Virus record (IMG/VR): IMGVR_UViG_3300028833_000062
Strand: one strand, 5' to 3'
DNA length: 64,000 nt
Origin: an uncultured virus (IMG/VR IMGVR_UViG_3300028833_000062)
Lineage: Duplodnaviria; Heunggongvirae; Uroviricota; Caudoviricetes
The position numbers were made by a program, and so were the translations under genes. Numbering within the stretch: position 1 is the first letter of the stretch; the number at the start of each line of letters is the position of its first letter. Positions 1,523-60,125 of the stretch are shown piece after piece. The notes beneath the pieces were generated by a model. It was not told where the DNA came from and did no database searches. It was given only the letters and a program-made list of their open reading frames with translations.

Positions 1523-2638
1523 ATGGCAAATTTAACTAAAGAAGTCGCAAACATTCATACCGCAACAACCAACGGATATGATTATGCAAATCGCCTTGCT
1601 ACTCTTACTCCCGAGGAAAAGTCTAAGTATCTTGCGTTGACGGATAAGGTCGATATTCACAACGTTTCAACCGTTCAGGAATATGGTTCCGAATTGAATG
1701 CAGTTGTCGCAGAAAACGGTGAAAGGTTTCTTGCTTCCGTAAAGGCCAGCGATGGTGGTGAAATCGTTGAGCTTACCACTGAGCTTCTTGCTCAGCTGAA
1801 CATGATTAACATTGATGAAATCAATGCAGACACCAAGTGGAAAAATTTCCTTCGTAGGCTTCCTGTTGTTAGGAAGTTCGTTACTACGATTGAAAATGTA
1901 AAAATCAAGTATAATGACATTGCACAGAATGTAAATTCTATTGCTGAAAAGATGTCCGCCGCTAAGATGGTGGCTATGGAAGATAATTCCACTCTTCAGG
2001 AGATTTTCGACAATAATGTAAATTACATCAAGCATATTCGTGAGCTTATCATTGCAGGTAAGGTAAAGCTTGAACAGGTCAAGGAGCAGCTTAATGATAT
2101 GAAGACGCATCCTGATCAGCATGAAAGTTATGAAATTTCTGAGGTTCAGGATTTCATCAATGCACTTGAAAAGAGGATTGCTGATCTTCAGGTAACTGAG
2201 GCTGTTATGCAGCAGAACCTTCTTCAGATTCGTGCAACTCAGGGAAATAACCTTGCAATTGCAAATAAGAGTGATAACATTGTAACCAATGTAATTCCTC
2301 TTTGGAAGAATCAGCTTTCTATCGCGGTTATCATGAATAACCAGAAGAAGAATGTTGAAGCTCAGCAAATGCTTGTTGATACCACTAATAAGATTCTTGC
2401 TGAAAATGCTAAGAACCTTCATACCAACTCTGTCAATGTTGCTAAGTCCAATGAAGAGGCTGTCATCTCTCTTGAGACTCTTAAGACCACTACTAATGAA
2501 CTTATCGCTACCATTAAGGAAGTTGAAAGGATTCATGCTGATGGTGCTCACCAGAGGGAGCAGATTGAGAAGGAACTTCATTCTATGGCTATTCAGCTTG
2601 AAGATGCCATTAACAGTGGCTCTTTGAAGAAGCAGTAG
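1523..2638 (+). CDS. telA: toxic anion (tellurite) resistance protein, TelA/KlaA family
   Basis: 371 aa helical protein with LEKRIADLQ..QIRATQGNN..VIPLWKNQL and ISLETLK motifs typical of TelA. Confidence 0.88.
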   Translation: MANLTKEVANIHTATTNGYDYANRLATLTPEEKSKYLALTDKVDIHNVSTVQEYGSELNAVVAENGERFLASVKASDGGEIVELTTELLAQLNMINIDEINADTKWKNFLRRLPVVRKFVTTIENVKIKYNDIAQNVNSIAEKMSAAKMVAMEDNSTLQEIFDNNVNYIKHIRELIIAGKVKLEQVKEQLNDMKTHPDQHESYEISEVQDFINALEKRIADLQVTEAVMQQNLLQIRATQGNNLAIANKSDNIVTNVIPLWKNQLSIAVIMNNQKKNVEAQQMLVDTTNKILAENAKNLHTNSVNVAKSNEEAVISLETLKTTTNELIATIKEVERIHADGAHQREQIEKELHSMAIQLEDAINSGSLKKQ

Positions 2639-2639
2639 T

Positions 2640-3308
2640 GTGGCTAATTTAAGTAAAGAAGCAAGAGAGGTTTTAGACAACCTCCTTGCTTCTAATAAAA
2701 AAGAAAATACTATGATGACATGGGAAGGTGGAGGAGGTCCACTTCCACCAAATACAAGACGAAATATTATGAATAAAGAAATAAAGGCATTGATCATTAA
2801 TGATAAAAAGAATAGTGAAAGAGTTATTTTCAATATGAAAAAAGCTCTATCTCTTGATGCGGATATTTCTTATAAAGATACTGAAAATGGAACAATTTCT
2901 GTATCAATAACAAAAAATGGACAGACTACAACTGAAGAATTTGACAGTATTCCTCAAGAGATAAAAGATGGAATTGATAGGGCTATGGCTATTAGACATA
3001 AGAAAGTATCTAAAGACCAAGCAAAAAATTCTGTAAATGTAAGATATAAGATTGGAGATATTCTTATTCTTAGAGGAAAAATCAGAGATGGTTCTCCTGA
3101 ACTTATAAAGAAGTTTGAAGTTAAGAAAATAATTTGGTCTATAAAAGAAGTACCAGTAAATATTCTTATTCTTAAACAACTTGAAGGGGTGAATAATAAT
3201 ATGTCACTTACAAAAAATGATTGTAAAAGATACCATATTAAATATGAAGAAGGTCTTCAGGTTTACTCTATGGGATTAAATTTCATAAAAAGAAAGAAAA
3301 AATCATAA
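2640..3308 (+). CDS. hypothetical protein
   Basis: 222 aa ORF, GTG start abutting telA stop. Confidence 0.7.
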   Translation: MANLSKEAREVLDNLLASNKKENTMMTWEGGGGPLPPNTRRNIMNKEIKALIINDKKNSERVIFNMKKALSLDADISYKDTENGTISVSITKNGQTTTEEFDSIPQEIKDGIDRAMAIRHKKVSKDQAKNSVNVRYKIGDILILRGKIRDGSPELIKKFEVKKIIWSIKEVPVNILILKQLEGVNNNMSLTKNDCKRYHIKYEEGLQVYSMGLNFIKRKKKS

Positions 3309-3377
3309 ATTTTTGTAAATTTTAAAAAAAAGATTCTATAATATATTAGATTTGATTTTAACTAAAAATTATATAAG

Positions 3378-3584
3378 ATGAATAAATTTATTAGACTACA
3401 CAATTCAGAAAATAATTCAGTTGTCATTGTGAATGTAAATTCAATTGTACTTATTGACACTGATGAGGTTGCAGGTAAGGTTTGCTCATTGGTTTATCTT
3501 GACTCTTCAAGTGATCTCGATAAATTCAATGTTAATGAATCTCCTGAAAAGATTTTTGATATGATTAGTTCTTTGAATAAATAA
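3378..3584 (+). CDS. small FlbD/SwrD-like beta protein
   Basis: 68 aa; FIRLH..VIVNVNSIVLI..VNESPEKI resembles the FlbD family pattern. Confidence 0.5.
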   Translation: MNKFIRLHNSENNSVVIVNVNSIVLIDTDEVAGKVCSLVYLDSSSDLDKFNVNESPEKIFDMISSLNK

Positions 3585-3591
3585 GAAAATT

Positions 3592-4087
3592 AAGTAATGT
3601 GGTATTAGAGGCCTATAACCTTAGTTAACATCGGATGAACTTTTTTTCTATAAAAATTGATTTTTTAGTACCCAACTTATTTTGATTTAATTATGATACT
3701 CTTTTAGGTTTTAATGGTTTACCTTTACTATTTTTATTTTTATAAACCAAGGGGAAATTCTTTCAATTAATAGAAATATAAAAAATAAGTCCGAAAATAC
3801 CTAATAACACAATCATTAGATTTAGCTCCCTTGTTTGAATTGACGGAAGAAGGTTTTGATAATTGGAGTTTAATGATACCCAGTTAAAATATAAGCCTAA
3901 TCTAATCAAATTTACTGGTGAAAGGAAAATCTTTGAAAGTAAATAAGTTTACTGGATAAAGAAAAAACTTTGAAAGTAAATAAGAGAAAGCTAAGACATA
4001 TAACCTGAATGTCCCTGTTTTATGAAGATTTGATAGACTGGAGGCTTGATAGGAGAACTTGGAGATTGTTACTTTTAGTGATTACTT
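3592..4087 (+). ncRNA. candidate large structured non-coding RNA (unclassified)
   Basis: No ORF; 5'/3' ends pair (AAGTAAT 3592-3598 with ATTACTT 4081-4087); many nested helices; followed by an intrinsic terminator. Confidence 0.6.
3911..3984 (+). repeat. two tandem 37-nt imperfect repeats, each a hairpin
   Basis: TTTACTGGTGAAAGGAAAATCTTTGAAAGTAAATAAG / TTTACTGGATAAAGAAAAAACTTTGAAAGTAAATAAG. Confidence 0.9.
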
Positions 4088-4094
4088 TTATACG

Positions 4095-4135
4095 GAGGAT
4101 GAAGAATATAAATCTTCATCCTCTTGTTTTTTTTT
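4095..4135 (+). terminator. intrinsic terminator
   Basis: GAGGATGAAGA / TCTTCATCCTC 11-bp stem followed by T tract. Confidence 0.85.
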
Positions 4136-4195
4136 GAATATATAGTATTGTTTTTTCTATTTTAATATTACAAATACAAGTTATAAATTTGAAAG

Positions 4196-5731
4196 ATGAT
4201 ATTAGATAGAACATGGAACAAAAGAGAACAAAAATTAGTAATTTCTTATATTGACAAAGAAGGTAATAGACAATTTTATCAGAAATATTTTCACCATTTT
4301 AAAACATATGAATACGATGACCGTGGTGATATAGATACATGGGATGGCCGTAAAGCTAGAAAAGTATTCAAAGATACAACAGATTATACACCTAATGAAT
4401 TCGATATACTTGAGTTTATGTATGAACTTCCTGAAGATTTAGGAAAGGAAATGCATGCTCAAAACTTCCCTAAATTATATTTCTTCGATATTGAAACTAA
4501 ATTTGACCCAACAACATTTCCTGATCCACAAACAGCTAGACACCAAGTAACATCTATTTCACTTGTTGGACCAGATATGAGTTGTATTGTATATGGTCTT
4601 AGGGAATTAAGACAAGATCAAATTGATCTTTTAAAATCCAGATATTTAGATTTTATAAATAACAATGAATTTGCAAAATCAAGATTAAAGAAAGAACCTA
4701 AAGTACTTTATCAGTATTTCTCAAATGAAGGAGATATGTTAAAGCACTTCTTTACAGTTATTTGTCCTAAAGTACCTTGTCTTGCAGGATGGAATAGTTA
4801 TGGATTTGACTTTATGTATCTTGTAACAAGACTTGGTGTTCTTTTTGGTCAAGCCGAAGCTTATAATATTCTTAGAAAATCTTCACCTACTGGTGAACTT
4901 ACTTCAATTAAAGTAAATAATCAGGCAGGACAGTTTTTATATAAATTTCCAGCACCTTGTCATACAATTTGGCTTGACTATATGGAAATAGTAAAACAGT
5001 ATGATTATTCTTTAAGACCTTATGAAAGTTATTCTTTGGATTGGGTTGGTGAACATGCTGTAAAAGCTAATAAGATTAAATATAATGGAACCTTAAATGA
5101 TTTGTATGAGAAAGATATTGAATGGTATTATTTCTATAATGCAATCGATAGTCTTATCGGTCTTCTTATACATTATCGATTGAAATCTCTTGAATCACCT
5201 TGTTCTGTTTCAAGTATTACACTTGTACCTCTTCTTAAAGCTTTTGGACAAGTTGCTCTTACTACAGCAAATGTATTTAATGAATTCTATCAAGATAATA
5301 AAAGAGTTGTATGGAATTATGATGCTGTTGAAAGATATAAAGTAAATTATGAAGGAGCTTTTTGTGGATGTGTACCTGGAAGATATTCTTGGAATGTATG
5401 TGATGACTTCGCATCACTTTATCCATCTCAAGTACAGACATGTAATTTCTCTTTTGAAAACTTTATCACACCAACAACTGAACCAGATTCTCTTGGAAGA
5501 ATTATTCCTAGAAAATGGACAGAAGAAGAACTTGCACAATTTAGAAATGATCCAAATTATTTTGTATCAATAAATGGCAATGTTTATAAGAATGATAAAG
5601 ATTATGCATTTAAGAGAATGCAAAGAAATATGAAAAAGAAAAGAGATGTATATAAATATACTGGTCAAAGAATAGAATCAGAATTACTACATGAAATTGA
5701 TAGATTAATAAAAGAAAAAGAATCTGCATGA
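4196..5731 (+). CDS. polB: family B DNA polymerase, N-terminal subunit (3'-5' exonuclease + motif A) of a split gene
   Basis: ExoI FFDIET, ExoII GWNSYGFD, ExoIII YNAID, motif A DFASLYPS; ends in the fingers (KKKRDVYK) without motif B or YGDTDS. Confidence 0.9.
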   Translation: MILDRTWNKREQKLVISYIDKEGNRQFYQKYFHHFKTYEYDDRGDIDTWDGRKARKVFKDTTDYTPNEFDILEFMYELPEDLGKEMHAQNFPKLYFFDIETKFDPTTFPDPQTARHQVTSISLVGPDMSCIVYGLRELRQDQIDLLKSRYLDFINNNEFAKSRLKKEPKVLYQYFSNEGDMLKHFFTVICPKVPCLAGWNSYGFDFMYLVTRLGVLFGQAEAYNILRKSSPTGELTSIKVNNQAGQFLYKFPAPCHTIWLDYMEIVKQYDYSLRPYESYSLDWVGEHAVKANKIKYNGTLNDLYEKDIEWYYFYNAIDSLIGLLIHYRLKSLESPCSVSSITLVPLLKAFGQVALTTANVFNEFYQDNKRVVWNYDAVERYKVNYEGAFCGCVPGRYSWNVCDDFASLYPSQVQTCNFSFENFITPTTEPDSLGRIIPRKWTEEELAQFRNDPNYFVSINGNVYKNDKDYAFKRMQRNMKKKRDVYKYTGQRIESELLHEIDRLIKEKESA

Positions 5732-5732
5732 T

Positions 5733-5966
5733 ATGAAAAATAATATAAATATAGAAGTAAATACTCTTGCAGCTTTATTTAACTTTAATGGAATTTCATA
5801 TAAAGATTTAGATACTAAAAAATTTGTAGAAACTCCTTATAAAAAAATTAGTCAATTAAAAGAATATCTTCATCAATTATATCCACAATATGATGAAATA
5901 TATTTTTATGAAAAAGTTAGAGATAGAAGACAAATAGAATGGAATAATGAATTTTTATTAAGTTAA
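5733..5966 (+). CDS. hypothetical protein
   Basis: 77 aa ORF tightly packed in operon. Confidence 0.6.
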   Translation: MKNNINIEVNTLAALFNFNGISYKDLDTKKFVETPYKKISQLKEYLHQLYPQYDEIYFYEKVRDRRQIEWNNEFLLS

Positions 5967-5970
5967 TATT

Positions 5971-6318
5971 ATGAAGATTAATGTAAAATTATTTGATCCT
6001 AATTATAGTGTAAATAAATATGGTGAAGGAGTTTTAGAAAATGCTATTAATGAATACATAAAAAATGGTAATAAATTTGTTTCATGTAATAGTGATTCTA
6101 CTGATTTAAAAGATATTATTGGTACTGTTGAGCATATTGATAGAACTGATAATGGTAAAGTATTTGCTGATATAGAATTGTTAGATACTCCTCAAGGAAA
6201 GATATATCAAGAAGCATTAAATTATGGTATGATTAATTTTGGTGTTTCTGGATATGGTAATAAAAATGAAGATGGAGTTATAACAGATTTTGAAATAAAA
6301 AGTATAAATGCAATATGA
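5971..6318 (+). CDS. short degenerate paralog of T4 gp21 prohead protease
   Basis: VFADIELLDTPQGKI..NFGVSGYG resembles the gp21 core, but GELxHP and GVSSRG motifs are absent. Confidence 0.55.
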   Translation: MKINVKLFDPNYSVNKYGEGVLENAINEYIKNGNKFVSCNSDSTDLKDIIGTVEHIDRTDNGKVFADIELLDTPQGKIYQEALNYGMINFGVSGYGNKNEDGVITDFEIKSINAI

Positions 6319-6632
6319 GTGAAGATAAGCATAGAATAAAATGGAAAAATTTAAAGATATGGCTTAAAGACCAGTTTAAAAGAAAAACTTGGTTTAAAAA
6401 TTTCTTTATCACTAGAAATGCATGGGGTGCATTCAGTATAAATAGTCATATTAATCAGCATACTGGTAAACCTAAGATAACTTATAATCATTTAGAAACT
6501 GCACTTAAGTCTGCACAGAAGATGAGTGAAAAACATGGTACTCATTTTAGTACTTATAAGTGTCTTTTCTGTGATGGTTATCATATTGGAAAAAATAGAG
6601 ATAATAAAACTGATTATGATAAATGTGGTTAA
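6315..6632 (+). CDS. hypothetical protein with C-terminal CxxC-H zinc-ribbon-like motif
   Basis: YKCLFCDGYHIG. Confidence 0.65.
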   Translation: MSEDKHRIKWKNLKIWLKDQFKRKTWFKNFFITRNAWGAFSINSHINQHTGKPKITYNHLETALKSAQKMSEKHGTHFSTYKCLFCDGYHIGKNRDNKTDYDKCG

Positions 6633-6774
6633 AGATTGGACAAAATGTTGGTATGAATTATTAAATAAATTTTATTTACCACAAATAAAATCAAATGATG
6701 GATTACCAGTAGGAGTTTTATTTTATTTAGATTTTAATTTTAATAGAAATAAATATATACAAGTAATAAAATAA
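6625..6774 (+). CDS. small peptide containing a major-capsid-like motif
   Basis: Probable GTG start at 6625 overlapping the upstream stop; LPVGVLFYLDF. Confidence 0.4.
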   Translation: MVKDWTKCWYELLNKFYLPQIKSNDGLPVGVLFYLDFNFNRNKYIQVIK

Positions 6775-7538
6775 TGGCAACTTTACATATAAACTTAGAA
6801 AAGTTAATAACAGAAAAGTTAGATGAAAAAATAAATGATGCAGTTTCAAAAGCAATTGAAAAAGTATTTTCTAATATTTCATTTGATTTTATATCTGATC
6901 AAAACAATTACGATGATAAAAATTCTTCAGATGAATGTTATAAAGAAAAATATATTGAAGAAGATAAAGACAATAAAATTAACATTATAGAAGAACAAAA
7001 AGCTCGTGAAGAAGATGTTAAACAAGAAGAAGATTCAACTTTAGAAGAAGTAAAAAGAGGTTGGGTTGAAAAAATGAATGCTTATGTTGATATTATAAAT
7101 CAAATGAAAGCTCAATTAACACCCCAACAACTTGAACAAATTAGTATGCCTAGAGAAATAGTATCTAAAAAAGAATATTCATTTAAGTTATTTATTGATA
7201 ATCTAACTTGGGATCAAGTAAACTTATTATTTAAATCCAATAATTATTTAAATGTTGATATTGTTTCTGAAGATTTTGAAGTTCAAAAAATAGAAACTTA
7301 TGGATTTACTCCTAAAGATATTTATTTTAAATTATTAAAACAAATTATTACAAATGAAGCTAATAGAGTTTATCATTTATCTTATAATGATCCAACAGTA
7401 ATATCATCACTTATTGTTACTGAACTTTATAATGATTATAATTCAAAAGTTATTGTATTTGTCGATGATATAATTGATAAACATCATATGGAAATTTTTG
7501 ATGAAATTTTTGGTGAACAATTTTATATGAAACAATAA
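6774..7538 (+). CDS. hypothetical protein
   Basis: 254 aa ORF, stop/start overlap with upstream ORF. Confidence 0.7.
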   Translation: MATLHINLEKLITEKLDEKINDAVSKAIEKVFSNISFDFISDQNNYDDKNSSDECYKEKYIEEDKDNKINIIEEQKAREEDVKQEEDSTLEEVKRGWVEKMNAYVDIINQMKAQLTPQQLEQISMPREIVSKKEYSFKLFIDNLTWDQVNLLFKSNNYLNVDIVSEDFEVQKIETYGFTPKDIYFKLLKQIITNEANRVYHLSYNDPTVISSLIVTELYNDYNSKVIVFVDDIIDKHHMEIFDEIFGEQFYMKQ

Positions 7539-7539
7539 T

Positions 7540-7788
7540 ATGGAAAAATTTACAAGATTAACACTTGAACAGTCTGATAGAAAAATGAATTGGGAGATGC
7601 CATATGAAGATGTAACTGCTGATGATTTACTTGAAGCATTTAATGCATTAATGATTGGATTTACATGGAATCAAAAAACAATATATGATGCAATGGCACA
7701 ATATCTTCAAGAGCATGCTTTTGATTTATATGATGTTTTTGATCATATTGATCATATTTCTGAACCTAATGAAGATGAAGGTAATTAA
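7540..7788 (+). CDS. hypothetical protein
   Basis: 82 aa acidic ORF followed by terminator. Confidence 0.7.
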   Translation: MEKFTRLTLEQSDRKMNWEMPYEDVTADDLLEAFNALMIGFTWNQKTIYDAMAQYLQEHAFDLYDVFDHIDHISEPNEDEGN

Positions 7789-7817
7789 AGTTGTAATTAA
7801 TATTACAACTTTTTTTT
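7788..7817 (+). terminator. intrinsic terminator
   Basis: AAGTTGTAAT / ATTACAACTT stem plus T tract. Confidence 0.7.
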
Positions 7818-7847
7818 ATTTTTATATAACTAATATAAAGATAAATA

Positions 7848-9071
7848 ATGAATAAGTTTTTTAATTACTTACAGCCAACTATAATTCAAGCTACAAATAA
7901 TGAAGAACTTCCAGAAAGAGTAAGAGGAAGATTCTTTATTAATTTTAATGTATTTGGTATACAATATTTTTCTGAAAACTATATATTACAAGAAACTTCA
8001 TTTGGTGCTCCTTATCTTATTTTAAAAGAAGATAACTGGGGTCTTCAACTTGAAAATACTTCAGAAGGTGAACTTCTTGATATTCCAAGAATATATATTG
8101 ATATAACAGATAAATTTGTAAATGATGAAGAAGGATTATTTCAATCATTCGTTGCTCAGTCATTAATGAATAATAAAATATGGGTAAGAGGTATTGATGG
8201 TTTCTTCGCTGGAATGGATTATTTTACAAATTATACTTTATATAACTATCTTGCTCTTACAGATCAGATTGAAGTTCCAGATTTTGGTGCACGTCTTCCT
8301 AATTATCTTGATAATTTTGGACAAATACAGACACAATATTGGAAACCATTGACTGGAGAAATTTATGAAGATTATAATAATATTGAGTATTTTAATGAGA
8401 AAAACAATTTATTAAATAATGAATATGATGAAGATACTCTTAATAATTTTTATTCTTCATTTTGCTCATTGATACTTGAATATACAAGAATTCCAGAAGA
8501 TGTATTAATTACACAACAAAATCAGATATATAACTTAGTATTAAACTATTTCAAGAATTTTAAATCTGACAGTGGTAGTGATGCACTTTCAATTATATTG
8601 AATTCAGGTTATACAGTTAATGAAAATTTAACAAAAGTTGGATGTAATTGTAATGATTCAATTTCAGGTTCAACAGAAATAAGTAAGTCTTGTTATGATT
8701 TATATGGAGAAGCAATGTTGAAATGGTTGAAAACAATGTTATCTGATACAAAATTTTATGAAGATTGGTTTAGAATACGTAAATCAGAAGATGATTGGAT
8801 TCCTAATGATGTATTAATTGAACATTTAAAAACATTCTTTGATGAATTTATTAAATTACAACATACATTAATGTTCTTAAAAACAACTTCATTAAGATGT
8901 GATTGTCCATCTCCTGTTTCATTTAATGAAAATGAATGTAATTATAATATAATAAATAACTATATTAAAATATTAAACTGGATATTTAATGAAGAAATTG
9001 ATGCTAATATAAATAAAATAAAAATATATGGTGGTCAATTTGGTGATTTACTTCCAAAATTACAATTTTAA
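7848..9071 (+). CDS. hypothetical (probably virion) protein with CxC motifs
   Basis: 407 aa; GCNCN and CDCP; preceded by TATTTTTA motif. Confidence 0.7.
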   Translation: MNKFFNYLQPTIIQATNNEELPERVRGRFFINFNVFGIQYFSENYILQETSFGAPYLILKEDNWGLQLENTSEGELLDIPRIYIDITDKFVNDEEGLFQSFVAQSLMNNKIWVRGIDGFFAGMDYFTNYTLYNYLALTDQIEVPDFGARLPNYLDNFGQIQTQYWKPLTGEIYEDYNNIEYFNEKNNLLNNEYDEDTLNNFYSSFCSLILEYTRIPEDVLITQQNQIYNLVLNYFKNFKSDSGSDALSIILNSGYTVNENLTKVGCNCNDSISGSTEISKSCYDLYGEAMLKWLKTMLSDTKFYEDWFRIRKSEDDWIPNDVLIEHLKTFFDEFIKLQHTLMFLKTTSLRCDCPSPVSFNENECNYNIINNYIKILNWIFNEEIDANINKIKIYGGQFGDLLPKLQF

Positions 9072-40737: not shown

Positions 40738-41490
40738 ATGAATGATATTAAAAAACCTTTGGTATTTCCAGATATAGAAACAACGGGTCTTAATAAAGAA
40801 CAAGATTCAATTATTCAATTTGCAGCAATTAAGGTTGATCCTATAACTGATGCAATTATTGATTCTATTAATTTATATATTCGTCCAATTGGACCATATA
40901 CTATTACTATACAAGCATATCTTAAACATCATATTAAACCAGCAGATCTTCAAGATAAACCAACATTTCCTGAGGTTGCTGATAAAATTAGAGATTTTCT
41001 TGAAGGTTGTGATATTGTAACTTATAATGGAAATGGATTTGATTTACCTTTTTTGAAATATGAATTTATTAAAGCTGGTAAAGATTTTTCATTTTTAAAT
41101 ATAAATTGTTATGATGCTTATGTAGAAGAAAGACGTAGAAATGGTATAACTCTTGCTCAGACATTTAAAAGATATGCTGGTTGTACAATGGAAGAAGCTG
41201 GATTAAAACCTCATGATGCTTTTAGTGATGTAAAAGCAACTCATAAGATTTTTTCAGAACAACAAAAGATTCAAGAATATGGACCAGAGTCTGTATTAAC
41301 TGAAGACAATAGTATTATTTTAACTGAATTTAATAACAGAGAATTACCATGTTTTAATATTGGTAAATATAAAGGACTTCCTATTTCTTATATTTCAAAT
41401 GTTGATCAACAATATTTAAAATGGTGTATAAGTGATAATTGTAATTTTGTTCAATCAACTAAGAATTATATTAGTAAATATATTAAATAA
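40738..41490 (+). CDS. DEDDh 3'-5' exonuclease (DnaQ/PolIII epsilon-like)
   Basis: DIETTG, YNGNGFD, HDAFSD; C-terminal FNIGKYKG module as in Bacteroidota homologs. Confidence 0.9.
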   Translation: MNDIKKPLVFPDIETTGLNKEQDSIIQFAAIKVDPITDAIIDSINLYIRPIGPYTITIQAYLKHHIKPADLQDKPTFPEVADKIRDFLEGCDIVTYNGNGFDLPFLKYEFIKAGKDFSFLNINCYDAYVEERRRNGITLAQTFKRYAGCTMEEAGLKPHDAFSDVKATHKIFSEQQKIQEYGPESVLTEDNSIILTEFNNRELPCFNIGKYKGLPISYISNVDQQYLKWCISDNCNFVQSTKNYISKYIK

Positions 41491-49489: not shown

Positions 49490-49948
49490 ATGTCAACTAA
49501 TAATTATATAAAACATCAAGGACCTAGAAAAAATTCTAAATATCATCAAGGTGTAGTTGATCCTAAAAAGCTTAGAAAATATTTTGATTCATGTAAAAAT
49601 GAACCAGTTATTTATAGAAGTGGATTAGAATATCAATTTATACAGTTTTGTGAAAATAGTCCTACAGTTGCTAAATGGGCAAGTGAAGTACTTAAGATAC
49701 CTTATTATTCTCATCTTGATGGTAAAGAATGTAATTATTATCCTGATTATGTTATTGAAAATTACAAAGGAGTAAAATGCGTAGTAGAGCTTAAACCATA
49801 TAATCAAACAATAAAACCAGATATGACAGATAGTAATTGGTTGAAAGAACAATGGATTAAGAATGTTGATAAATGGAATGCTGCTAAAAAATTCTGTGAT
49901 GAGAATGGACTTAAATTTATGATTATAACTGAAAAATTCTTTGAATAA
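49490..49948 (+). CDS. head completion nuclease, T4 gp4 / TnsA-like
   Basis: IYRSGLE..WASEVLKIPY..YYPDY..ELKP..NVDKWNAAKKFC..F.IITE. Confidence 0.9.
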   Translation: MSTNNYIKHQGPRKNSKYHQGVVDPKKLRKYFDSCKNEPVIYRSGLEYQFIQFCENSPTVAKWASEVLKIPYYSHLDGKECNYYPDYVIENYKGVKCVVELKPYNQTIKPDMTDSNWLKEQWIKNVDKWNAAKKFCDENGLKFMIITEKFFE

Positions 49949-54218: not shown

Positions 54219-54665
54219 ATGGATAAAGTAGTTAATGGTAAAAAGATTACTGCTGCTGTAGTAATTATTGATAGTGAAGGAAATATTCTTGCTTGTCATG
54301 GTACTGGTAAACCTAAAGATAGTGGATATGATTTTCCTAAGGGTTGTGTAGAAGAAAAGGAAGCAGATATTGCTGCAGCTGTTCGTGAACTTAGAGAAGA
54401 AACAGATATTTATCTTGATGATTCTTATCGACTGATTGATGCAGGAATACATCCGCATAATAAGGAAAAGAATATTCATCTATTTATTTATAAGACTAAT
54501 CATTTTCCTCCTCTTGAACAGTTGAAGTGTTCTACATATTTTGAAAGATATGGTAAGCAATTTCCTGAAGTAGATTCTTATAAGATTATTTCAAAAAGTG
54601 AAAGAAGAATGTTTAATAAAGTACTTCAGAATAAATTTGAAATTATTGATAATTTTAATAAATAA
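54219..54665 (+). CDS. NUDIX hydrolase
   Basis: PKGCVEEKEADIAAAVRELREETDI NUDIX box. Confidence 0.92.
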   Translation: MDKVVNGKKITAAVVIIDSEGNILACHGTGKPKDSGYDFPKGCVEEKEADIAAAVRELREETDIYLDDSYRLIDAGIHPHNKEKNIHLFIYKTNHFPPLEQLKCSTYFERYGKQFPEVDSYKIISKSERRMFNKVLQNKFEIIDNFNK

Positions 54666-58528: not shown

Positions 58529-58696
58529 ATGAATAAAGAAGAATTATCAAAGAAAATCCATGATGCTTTGATGGAGTATTCATTTAAGATTGCAATGGAA
58601 AGTGAAGATGGTAAATTTAGCATGTCTGATATGTGTGAAGCATTCCATAAGGGTACTGAAGTAATTCTTGAATCATTAAACATTAATCTTGATTAA
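58529..58696 (+). CDS. hypothetical protein (55 aa, absent from the ORF track)
   Basis: MNKEELSKKIHDAL.. directly upstream of cca. Confidence 0.55.
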   Translation: MNKEELSKKIHDALMEYSFKIAMESEDGKFSMSDMCEAFHKGTEVILESLNINLD

Positions 58697-58697
58697 T

Positions 58698-60125
58698 ATG
58701 ACTTTTAAGACTCTTCCATATGATAACTTACTTAAGGAAATTGGCTGTGTTGCTGATGATCTTAAGTATGAATGCTATGTAGTTGGTGGTTTTGTTCGTG
58801 ACCTACTTCTTAATAGAGACAATGATGACATTGATGTTGTTGTTGTTGGTAAGGGAGTAGAGATGGCTAAGACCTATGTAAAATATCTTCGGGGTTTAGG
58901 AAGAAATGTAAAGTATTCTTTTTTTGAAAACTTTGGTACCGCTCAGGTTAAGGTTGATGATCCTGAGTATGGTGATATTGAAGTTGAGTTTGTTGGCGCA
59001 AGAAAGGAATCTTATGAGCGTGGTTCTAGAAAGCCTATTGTTGAAGAAGGTACTCTTCGTGATGACCAGCTTCGTCGCGACTTTACTATCAATGCAATGG
59101 CAATTTGTTTGAATAAGAAGCATTTTGGAAAGCTTGTTGACCCTTTCAATGGAGTTGATGATCTTAAAAGAGGAATTATTCGTACTCCAGTAAATCCAGA
59201 TATTACTTTTTCTGATGATCCTCTTCGTCAGCTTCGCGCTGTTCGTTTTGCAGCTAAGCTAAATTTTGATATTGATAGAAATACTTTTGAAGGAATTCAG
59301 AGAAATGCAGATAGGCTTTCTATCATCTCTGAGGAAAGAATCAATGTTGAACTTATGAAAATTCTTGCTTCTGACTCTCCTTCTAAGGGTATTCATCTTC
59401 TTCTTGATACTGGACTTCTTGAGAAGTTTCTTCCTGAAGTAAGTAAATTAAATACTGATGGAAGGACTGAGAAGATTACTCATGGGCATAAGAATATCTT
59501 TGCTCATACTCTTGAAGTTCTTTCAAATGTAAGTGCAAAGACTTCTAATCCTTGGATTCGTCTTGCTGCACTTCTTCATGACATTGGTAAGATTCCTACC
59601 AGAAAATATATTCCTGGTACTGGTTATACTTTTATGGGACATGAGAATGTTGGAGCAAACATGGTTGATGTAATTTTCCGCCGTCTTAAGCTTCCTCTTG
59701 ATGAGCATCTTACTCTTGTACATAATTTGGTAAAGCTTCATATGCGTCCTCAGTCAATTGCTTCTGAAGGTGTTACTGATTCTGGCGTACGTCGTCTTGT
59801 CTTTGATGCTGATGGACATATTGATGACCTTCTTATTCTTGCTGAAAGTGATATTACTACTGGTAAACTTGCAAAGAAAGAGAAGTTTATTGCTCAGTAT
59901 GAGGAGTTGAAGAAAAGGATTGAAGAGCTTAAGCAAGCTGACTTTGTAAGAACTTTCCAGCCTTGTGTAAGTGGTAATGATATTATGGAAAGATATGGTC
60001 TTTCTCCTTGTAAGAAGGTTGGTGAACTGAAGCAGATTATCAAGGATGCTGTTCTTGATGGTACTGTAGAGAACACTCCTGAAAAGCTATATGAGATTCT
60101 TGATAAAGAAATGAATTATGAATAA
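58698..60125 (+). CDS. cca: CCA-adding tRNA nucleotidyltransferase with HD domain
   Basis: VVGGFVRD..DIDV, RRDFTINA, FSDDPLR, ERINVEL, ALLHDIGK; VEFVGARKESY block typical of Bacteroidota enzymes. Confidence 0.92.
   Translation: MTFKTLPYDNLLKEIGCVADDLKYECYVVGGFVRDLLLNRDNDDIDVVVVGKGVEMAKTYVKYLRGLGRNVKYSFFENFGTAQVKVDDPEYGDIEVEFVGARKESYERGSRKPIVEEGTLRDDQLRRDFTINAMAICLNKKHFGKLVDPFNGVDDLKRGIIRTPVNPDITFSDDPLRQLRAVRFAAKLNFDIDRNTFEGIQRNADRLSIISEERINVELMKILASDSPSKGIHLLLDTGLLEKFLPEVSKLNTDGRTEKITHGHKNIFAHTLEVLSNVSAKTSNPWIRLAALLHDIGKIPTRKYIPGTGYTFMGHENVGANMVDVIFRRLKLPLDEHLTLVHNLVKLHMRPQSIASEGVTDSGVRRLVFDADGHIDDLLILAESDITTGKLAKKEKFIAQYEELKKRIEELKQADFVRTFQPCVSGNDIMERYGLSPCKKVGELKQIIKDAVLDGTVENTPEKLYEILDKEMNYE

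Follow-up and report, generated by a model that had tools for sequence, protein, structure and literature searches.

A large structured RNA, possibly circular, in a conserved cassette of huge gut phages

A 64,000-nucleotide stretch of DNA from an uncultured tailed phage (IMG/VR record IMGVR_UViG_3300028833_000062; the whole stretch is called the window here) encodes a large, intricately folded RNA of about 500 nucleotides (nt) on the + strand. The RNA lies between a 68-codon open reading frame (ORF), ORF68, which forms a conserved cassette with upstream genes for a TelA-like protein and a protein p222, and the gene for a family-B DNA polymerase. An earlier note, made from the letters of the window, had pointed to a large, structured, unclassified + strand phage RNA that ends at a strong terminator, and this core inference holds because base pairs covary in 15 homologues, no Rfam family matches, and contigs from RNA libraries cover the region. 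We propose that the RNA represents an undescribed class of large structured noncoding RNA (ncRNA) of huge gut phages; for this explanation as a whole, biogenesis and function included, we consider the chances evenly balanced.

The long gene-free gap in which the note had placed the RNA is real: 3585-4195 is the longest internal run without an ORF of at least 60 amino acids (aa), at 611 nt, against at most 350 nt for the remaining internal gaps. It is bounded by the stop codon of ORF68 and the start of the polymerase gene at 4196.

Covariation and predicted fold

Homologues were gathered by way of the polymerase, of a conserved 18-20-mer and of ORF68. Nine viral contigs carry the RNA, and these are the ones with a polymerase 78-91% identical to that of the window. 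So do 13 of the 27 metagenome loci in which the 18-mer occurs and one contig of a metagenome-assembled genome (MAG). The most conserved block, ATACCCAGTTAAAATATAAGCC, contains an inner 20-mer that retrieved the same eight viral contigs and the inner 18-mer that gave the 13 true metagenome homologues. The remaining 18-mer loci, 12 without further likeness and 2 with a short weak likeness, were judged to be chance matches, and the 8 of these 14 that were queried have no cassette gene nearby.

A consensus computed with RNAalifold from 15 distinct sequences (alignment A5, drawn from phage and metagenome contigs) comprises 87 pairs, 39 of them with compensatory changes. Standard pairs fill 94.9% of the cells, against 37-48% when partners are slid by 1-3 columns. 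Changes on both sides of a pair affect 39 pairs (6-15 in the slid controls) and 127 cells (12-24 in the slid controls), and none of 500 shuffles reaches the observed values on any of five covariation measures. Covariation among homologues, which the earlier note had named as a check, is thus clearly present. Because G.U cells outnumber A.C cells 121 to 16 over 79 pairs, we assign the RNA to the + strand, in agreement with the G-U orientation noted before; the promoter and terminator described below have this orientation too.

Nucleotide identity reaches 85-87% in two core blocks of domain 2 and averages only 53% in domain 1, where the pairs are still kept; for comparison, it is 77% in the polymerase gene (60% at third codon positions) and 60% in ORF68. 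None of the + strand ORFs inside the putative ring is conserved (the longest, of 20-43 aa, lie at different positions among homologues), and indels among the homologues have lengths that are not multiples of three, so the RNA is taken to be noncoding. On the - strand, 8 of the 14 other sequences have an ORF in much the same part of the ring as the window ORF 3763-3909 (48 aa); the diverged sequences lack it, so a coding role was rejected. Together, the covariation, the G.U asymmetry, the lack of a conserved + strand ORF and the identity pattern are the signature of a structured RNA.

On its own, folding energy would weigh against the RNA. The linear + strand folds at -106.5 kcal/mol, against -103.2 +/- 5.6 kcal/mol for shuffled sequences (z -0.60; 30 of 100 shuffles as good), and the circular fold of 3588-4088 has a z of +0.41. 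The energy is therefore no better than that of shuffles, a result that the earlier note had listed as speaking against its own idea. Since single-sequence energy is unremarkable, the case for the RNA rests on covariation, and with both covariation and transcript evidence positive the idea stands despite the shuffle-level energy. An exhaustive scan of column pairs for covariation was too noisy for use. The - strand folds slightly better than shuffles (z -2.22), which could be counted in favour of an element that acts as DNA (for instance an origin of replication, or a site of packaging or recombination) and whose repeats merely mimic RNA helices; the region is also AT-rich, adjoins the polymerase gene and contains a 37-nt tandem repeat. 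However, an excess of G.U over A.C cells is expected solely for a + strand RNA, the tandem repeat is confined to the window, and the promoter, terminator and RNA-library contigs described below suit a transcript, so that a DNA element seems to us very improbable indeed.

The alignment defines a two-domain fold on the + strand, in which the closing helix P1, domain 1 and domain 2 meet at a tight three-way junction (Table 1). P1, proposed in the earlier note as 3592-3598/4081-4087, is perfect in the window, but only its outer four base pairs (bp), AAGT/ACTT, are conserved; locus L056 carries the compensating AAAATT/AATTTT. In domain 1, the proposed arm helices 3599-3608/3801-3810 and 3631-3635/3790-3794 covary strongly (for example UA:7 GC:4 CG:4 and CG:9 UA:6), and the apical hairpin is likewise supported (CG:5 AT:4 TA:2 at its base). 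The continuation of the second arm helix, 3640-3642/3787-3789, is not confirmed: it pairs in 6-14 of the 15 sequences, and the consensus register 3641-3645/3781-3785 is used in its place.

Two helices suggested for the 3' half are not supported. The first, 3815-3822/3899-3906, is compatible with the alignment yet invariant, and competes with the covarying 3813-3819/4075-4081 (G-C:9, A-U:5); the second, 3906-3913/4026-4033, is pairable in part only, is also invariant and competes with covarying pairs. The suggested pseudoknots fare no better, as CCTAT/ATAGG pairs in 3-13 of the 15 sequences, with a gap there in 11 of the 15, and CCAGT/ACTGG is lost in L008 in the alignment. A stricter helix scan of the alignment found no supported pseudoknot and a weak alternative pairing of 3828-3832 with the 5' arm of the terminator. 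What appeared as twin hairpins is present in the window but is really a 37-nt tandem duplication, missing from the other homologues, which have unrelated insertions at 3911-3984, some with a CTTCGG hairpin. The second invariant block would form the hairpin GACAT-ATAACCTGA-ATGTC and contains the word GAATGTCCCTGT, which is common to the megaphage RNA candidate considered below. A point against this part of the fold is that the inner hairpins of domain 2 are almost invariant and thus predicted, with no covariation signal.

Transcript, ends and a possible ring

The ORF68-RNA unit is preceded by a sigma-70-like promoter, of which CTAT and part of the -10 element are invariant in 12 aligned homologous upstream regions, and is followed by the sole terminator-like site within 3000-4500. 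The strong terminator of the earlier note is borne out: it consists of a 12-bp hairpin and a T-run, and 7 of 8 counted pairs are compensatory in homologues (helix 16), so that a G+C-rich hairpin with its U-run, as expected of an intrinsic terminator, is maintained by compensatory change.

Eleven RNA runs, all sheep or bovine gut metatranscriptomes and from eight studies, hold part of the region, in every case as assembled contigs. Contigs of four runs (X1, X3, X4 and X6) were placed on the window; the parts that they leave uncovered (4098-4204 in X3, X4 and X6; the p222 gene in X1) were not used as evidence. In X1, an exact 650-nt contig (3373-4022) runs unbroken through ORF68 and into the RNA at a mean depth of 130.2, and exact contigs on the polymerase gene have depths of 3.9-9.4 (contig means only). 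The start of the 650-nt contig at 3373 also fits the promoter at 3313-3342. A transcript, another check named beforehand, is thus seen in RNA libraries.

The contigs also bear on the ends. A contig of X3 joins 4088 back to 3588, with 96 letters on its shorter side, 0 shared letters and 1 other letter per piece. In X6, which comes from another study, the joint runs from 4080 to 3593 in the contig of a close relative, with 1 shared letter. No letters are inserted at either joint and both fall at P1, which the joint 4088|3588 would close with a 5-nt loop. At the least, these joints point to a discrete processed species whose two ends lie at P1. A ring of about 500 nt is the bolder interpretation, and here we see the matter as poised about equally between yes and no, because the contigs lack junction frequencies, chimeras could arise and the two joints differ. 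On either reading, the ~500-nt RNA of the earlier note is upheld in size, since the back-joints give a species of that length, but not in extent, since the mature RNA, 3588-4088, excludes the terminator.

We infer, with good support, that the RNA arises as the 3' part of the ORF68 transcript, which ends at the intrinsic terminator, and that it is processed at P1. Cleavage or trimming would release it a few bases beyond that helix, near 3588 and 4088; P1 would keep both ends adjacent, and the ends could be sealed into the ring. The sealing enzyme would most simply be an ATP-dependent RNA ligase of the Rnl1 or Rnl2 kind. The genome of the nearest relative, G001, encodes both. Its Rnl1/gp63-like protein matches PF09511 (E 8.8e-15) and phrog_562 (E 3.8e-54), and its Rnl2-family protein matches PF09414 (E 3.2e-12). 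Rnl1-type sealing would suit ends that a helix holds close and that are joined within a small loop.

Several observations weigh against a ligase-closed ring. Back-joined contigs occur in two of the four runs placed; the contigs of X1 and X4 have no back-joint, and X1 has a linear contig over the 5' site. The evidence consists of two assembled contigs and not of raw reads, and where an abundant linear RNA has fixed ends, de Bruijn assembly could turn its rare head-to-tail cDNA chimeras into the same path. The joints of X3 and X6 are 13 nt apart, and the latter deletes the 3' strand of P1. As for the enzymes, RtcB was sought in G001 and not found, G006, a relative that lacks the RNA, has PF09414 ligases too, a PF09511 match came from only one of the eight records searched, and no ligase was found among the 56 of the window's 59 ORFs of at least 100 aa that were scanned. 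Because the distribution of ligases fails to separate phages with and without the RNA, ligase presence should be seen as permissive and not specific.

These points would fit a linear form of the same new structured RNA, a stable species derived from the ORF68 3' untranslated region (UTR) and trimmed to the base of P1, with the back-joints as artefacts of reverse transcription or assembly. Such a form would account equally well for the structure, the conservation and the cassette. Yet the joints come from two different studies and lie within a few bases of the same helix, and with 0 and 1 shared letters and no inserted ones they are cleaner than typical template switching, which often adds bases. 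We therefore treat the linear form as a serious alternative, albeit one that falls well short of an even chance, and retain the ring as the form on which the proposal is built.

Another contig of X1, at depth 446, stops at 4056, in domain 2, and continues straight into sequencing-adapter letters; this implies that very many fragments end exactly there, whether through a nick, a strong start or stop of reverse transcription or a second processing site. The window also encodes a CCA-adding/poly(A) polymerase-like protein with an HD domain (58689-60125), a NUDIX hydrolase (54219-54665) and an RNase T-like exonuclease (40738-41490), although ARAGORN finds no tRNA gene in the 64 kb. These enzymes could process RNA ends, including those of the ~500-nt RNA.

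The cassette and its genomic setting

The order p222, ORF68, RNA, polymerase is kept in every homologous locus that is long enough, each neighbour being present in 13 of 14 loci; of the 14 RNA-bearing loci queried, for example, 13 have p222 on the 5' side of the RNA. The TelA-like protein is 56% identical to its counterpart at the same place in the megaphage locus L075 and is also encoded in L098 and L078. The protein p222 has no Pfam or PHROG family, and a fold search with its AlphaFold2 (AF2) model (pLDDT 76) gives no clear match; its C-terminal domain is 55% identical over 78 aa to a 134-aa megaphage ORF (E 2e-25; alignment A11). The AF2 model of ORF68 (pLDDT 92.9) has a five-stranded beta fold and a C-terminal helix. 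The fold matches of ORF68 are to small nucleic-acid-binding beta folds (Sac7d, E 0.2; RemA, Z 5.6; LytTR, Z 5.3) and are weak, a lead and not a finding; an Atlas look-up returned unnamed viral clusters. ORF68, which is co-transcribed with the RNA, is a candidate protein partner of it.

A search with ORF68 returned 16 viral loci, the nine RNA-bearing ones and seven from megaphages, on contigs of up to 554 kb. The megaphage loci (L074-L076 and L078-L081) have a TelA-like gene, the p222 C-domain, a tandem, two-domain ORF68 and a gap of about 700 nt that contains no ORF and closes with a terminator; an HSP90/HATPase-like gene replaces the polymerase 3' of the cassette. In the fold of the gap, a 15-bp helix closes the ends, a long arm is variable and the 3' domain is conserved; 12 pairs are compensatory, against 0-2 for slid partners, among two sequence types only. 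The word GAATGTCCCTGT occurs at a similar relative position and is the best match with nhmmer --max (E 0.03-0.09). The gap resembles another, larger version of the RNA that is sited ahead of the HSP90-like gene. Against this stands the narrow basis of the comparison, which consists of synteny, architecture and one common 12-13-mer. Because R1, a model of the RNA 3' core that was used beside the RNA profile, gives only E 3-9 on these loci with filters off and nhmmer returns nothing at its default settings, the likeness is not established as homology at the RNA level. No Rfam match was found in the gap. In both sequence types the HSP90/HATPase-like gene (L075:2638-3195, L078:2405-3175) has an in-frame TAG at codon 11, which suggests stop-codon recoding in the megaphages or a start further downstream. 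In G008, the record of L075, a 516-aa frame a few kb from the cassette and on the same strand gives a weak RNA_ligase (PF09414) match (contig 90674-91108), and three stronger ligase matches lie elsewhere in that genome.

Since the cassette recurs before a different gene, the RNA travels with ORF68, the TelA-like gene and p222 and not with the polymerase. The position upstream of the DNA polymerase that the earlier note reported is correct, but the tie is to the ORF68/TelA-like cassette. Nine polymerase loci of 55-68% identity (L027-L035) have no RNA, ORF68, p222 or TelA-like gene within 1.5 kb upstream, and the RNA profile and R1 find no copy of the RNA core in three whole relative records (223-410 kb). 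These results bear on a further alternative, in which the element is a cis-acting leader or attenuator, that is, a giant riboswitch-like or protein-binding element that controls read-through of the terminator into the polymerase gene. Its place directly upstream of that gene and its terminator would suit such a role, and family-B polymerases of T4-like phages bind their own mRNA. We nevertheless hold a leader to be very improbable, given that the megaphage cassette keeps its upstream genes and precedes an HSP90-like gene, that the interval from the terminator to the polymerase start has a conserved block of its own, that the joints place the ends of the abundant species before the terminator, and that the nine loci and three records just described lack the RNA.

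At one of those nine loci, with a polymerase 67% identical, a stretch of about 1.2 kb upstream of the polymerase (L031:208-1365) has no ORF of at least 45 aa and is matched by neither the RNA profile nor R1; it could be another RNA or a recoded gene. The MAG contig (L098) carries the whole cassette and the RNA (R1, 141.6 bits) on 47 kb filed under a Clostridia MAG, and is either a hint of the host or a phage contig misbinned into that MAG.

For the function of the RNA we suggest, speculatively, that an exonuclease-resistant species would build up from the host-type promoter and act in trans as a scaffold or decoy, probably in a particle with the ORF68 protein, whose binding is predicted only, and alongside the TelA-like and p222 proteins; the polymerase gene would not be regulated by it. 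As a cassette linked to TelA-like proteins, it is suggestive of a role in conflict, between phage and host or between phages, and not in replication. Our best guess is a stable RNA-protein particle that acts in trans within a TelA-linked conflict or takeover cassette. A more specific version, in which a transferable cassette of huge ruminant-gut phages produces a ligase-closed RNA ring and an ORF68-family beta-protein that form a particle for host takeover or exclusion of rival phages, is offered tentatively, as somewhat likelier to be wrong than right.

The rest of the window belongs to a large AT-rich tailed phage with, among others, a T4-type portal gene, the TelA-like gene and the CCA-adding/poly(A) polymerase-like gene. 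The nearest record, G001, has 83% of the window's sampled words in common, and blastn against a phage record collection gave no match. The nearly invariant block at 4150-4195 is, from its sequence and place, probably the polymerase gene's own promoter or operator, a presumed control region. The polymerase ORF itself ends at 511 aa, past the exonuclease part and a DxxSLYPS-like motif, and is followed by five ORFs without family matches (5733-5966, 5971-6318, 6315-6632, 6774-7538 and 7848-9071). The Pfam polymerase domain has no match among the window ORFs and, in G001, a weak 18-bit match inside the same frame; the gene looks split, with its second part elsewhere (window 4196-9071). A 152-aa ORF at 49490-49948 has a TnsA-like endonuclease N-terminal domain and is possibly a homing or mobile-element nuclease.

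Table 1. Features of the RNA locus and its cassette (window positions unless a locus is named)
Feature	Position	Strand	Basis or remark
Putative mature RNA, 501 nt, possible covalent ring	3588-4088	+	Back-joined contigs of X3 and X6; covariation-supported fold
Closing helix P1	3592-3597/4082-4087	+	Outer four pairs AAGT/ACTT paired in 11-15 of 15 sequences
Domain 1, long variable arm	3598-3811	+	18 of 22 pairs compensatory (helices 1-4)
Domain 1 helices	3598-3608/3801-3811; 3624-3625/3799-3800; 3631-3636/3789-3794; 3641-3645/3781-3785; apical 3715-3721/3743-3749		
Domain 2, multibranch core	3813-4081	+	Closing helices with 11 of 17 pairs compensatory (helices 6-8)
Domain 2 closing helices	3813-3819/4075-4081; 3823-3826/4068-4071; 3828-3836/4055-4063		Compensatory changes in all three
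Domain 2 inner hairpins (predicted)	3840-3843/3906-3909; 3852-3858/3892-3897; 3861-3866/3880-3885; 3911-3917/3975-3980; 3925-3930/3966-3971; 3987-3991/4017-4021; 3995-3999/4009-4013		
Most conserved block	3876-3897	+	Exact in the window and in 9 of 9 loci (L001-L009)
Tandem duplication, 37 nt x 2	3911-3984	+	TRF period 37, 2.0 copies, 89% matches; in the variable arm of domain 2
Second invariant block	3987-4021	+	Alignments A5 and A6
Sigma-70-like promoter of the ORF68-RNA unit	3313-3342	+	TTGTAA, 18 nt, TATAAT; 10 of 12 consensus matches
Intrinsic terminator	4094-4133 (hairpin 4094-4124 and T-run)	+	12-bp stem, 7-nt loop; outside the mature RNA
TelA-like gene, first cassette member	1523-2638	+	Pfam TelA, E 6.8e-73
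p222, second cassette member	2640-3308	+	C-terminal ~100 aa strongly conserved
ORF68, conserved 68-aa protein	3378-3584	+	Homologues immediately 5' of the RNA in 13 of 14 loci; alignment A7
Conserved block	4150-4195	+	AT-rich, nearly invariant in alignment A2 of close homologues; between terminator and polymerase start
Family-B DNA polymerase, N-terminal piece, 511 aa	4196-5731	+	Pfam DNA_pol_B_exo1; PHROG DNA polymerase; neighbour outside the cassette
Megaphage gap	L074-L076 about 1932-2640; L078-L081 about 1722-2405		Terminator-ended, ~700 nt

Relation to known RNA classes

The earlier note recognised no tmRNA, RNase P, intron, ROOL or GOLLD signature, and the model searches agree. Rfam 15, which we take to contain the ROOL and GOLLD models, gives no gathering match on the 64-kb window, nothing inside 3588-4088 at E up to 10, and chance-level matches only on six homologous loci; the ROOL and GOLLD covariance models match neither the window nor these six loci. 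Weak matches to snoR22, RAGATH-30, JPX_2, STnc410, ceN108, mir-1892 and SNORD123 (E up to 10) score far below gathering level, lie outside the RNA or antisense to the conserved block, and were dismissed as chance. ARAGORN finds no tmRNA in the window either, and no model match supports tmRNA, RNase P, 6S or other housekeeping RNAs. Full-text literature searches, which do not extend to supplements, where a listing is possible, found no description of the RNA, and in one text (10.64898/2026.10.21.760802) the terms rumen, circular RNA, DNA polymerase, jumbo and ROOL do not occur.

A very diverged member of a known large class, whether ROOL, GOLLD or a self-circularising group I or group II intron, deserves consideration, as the size, the gut habitat (from run labels), the phage origin and the possible circle all resemble ROOL and group I introns, and the latter are common in phage DNA-metabolism genes and form circles. 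The absence of any Rfam match inside the RNA argues otherwise, as does its place between the stop codon of ORF68 and a terminator, where it interrupts no gene. Group I introns call for U before the 5' splice site and G as their last base, where this RNA has A3587 and, in the X3 ring, U4088 (the X6 joint ends on G4080); the ring begins AAUUAAGU and has no GUGYG start of the group II kind. Nor does the RNA follow the ROOL plan: homologous rings measure 464-530 nt, the 64 kb contain no tRNA gene, no pseudoknot is supported, and the junctions, one three-way at P1 plus a few in domain 2, are fewer than the six of ROOL. We regard a diverged known family as very unlikely.

Two other classes were also considered and rejected. 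No flanking self-cleaving ribozyme (hammerhead, twister, hatchet, pistol or HDV-like) was found at E up to 10 within 3300-4300, and the sequence contexts of the 5' and 3' processing sites differ. A viroid- or obelisk-like RNA replicon would be at odds with the DNA copies in the nine viral contigs, 13 metagenome loci and one MAG contig.

Large, intricately folded ncRNAs are rare in bacteria and phages, and each earlier class opened new biochemistry or structural biology. The present RNA is ready for experiments: comparison supports it strongly, it is seen to be transcribed, its promoter and terminator are defined, and it has a conserved protein neighbour. If the ring is real, phages would make stable circular RNAs out of ordinary genes, and phage RNA ligases, whose roles other than tRNA repair are to our knowledge unclear, would have a physiological role beyond it; the ring would also be a natural template for the design of exonuclease-resistant RNA. 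Should a ligase close it, this would be the first large circular ncRNA encoded in phage DNA and a natural substrate of T4-type RNA ligases.

Among known systems, ROOL and GOLLD resemble the RNA in several ways: they fall in the 500-800 nt size class, have many helices and strongly conserved unpaired regions, and are associated with phages. ROOL, which averages 581 nt, is known from prophages and was first detected in cow rumen data; tRNA genes are frequent near both RNAs (PMC5737381). Both are reported to form RNA-only assemblies (10.1101/2024.12.08.627333). In contrast, the present RNA has no Rfam match, no tRNA gene nearby in the 64 kb and a narrow distribution, along with a dedicated upstream protein gene, the TelA-like cassette and a possible circular form.

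With respect to ring formation, the circular C/D-box small RNAs (sRNAs) of archaea are comparable as DNA-encoded ncRNAs whose ends are joined by an Rnl-type ATP-dependent ligase; a ligase knockout in Thermococcus kodakarensis represses their circularisation (PMC9014305). Here a terminal helix would gather the ends, and the nearest relative encodes PF09414 and PF09511 ligases. The archaeal RNAs, however, are small and guide methylation, whereas the present RNA is ~500 nt long and phage-encoded, with both its circularity and its ligase putative. Excised group I introns of phage genes are likewise structured, several hundred bases long and found in DNA-metabolism regions, and can circularise; the present RNA differs in lying outside any gene, in matching no intron model and in end bases that depart from the splice-site rules.

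The proposed origin has a parallel in small RNAs derived from 3' UTRs, which come from the 3' end of a coding transcript, share its terminator and are then released by processing. Unlike these, the present RNA is far larger, its terminator hairpin is removed and its ends are perhaps joined. Finally, OLE RNA is about 600 nt long, has highly conserved nucleotides and forms a ribonucleoprotein with dedicated proteins (PMC9723947). OLE is bacterial, and its Oap partners are, judging by names only, unrelated to ORF68; by analogy, OLE and its Oap proteins may serve as a model for the particle that we propose the RNA to form with the ORF68 protein.

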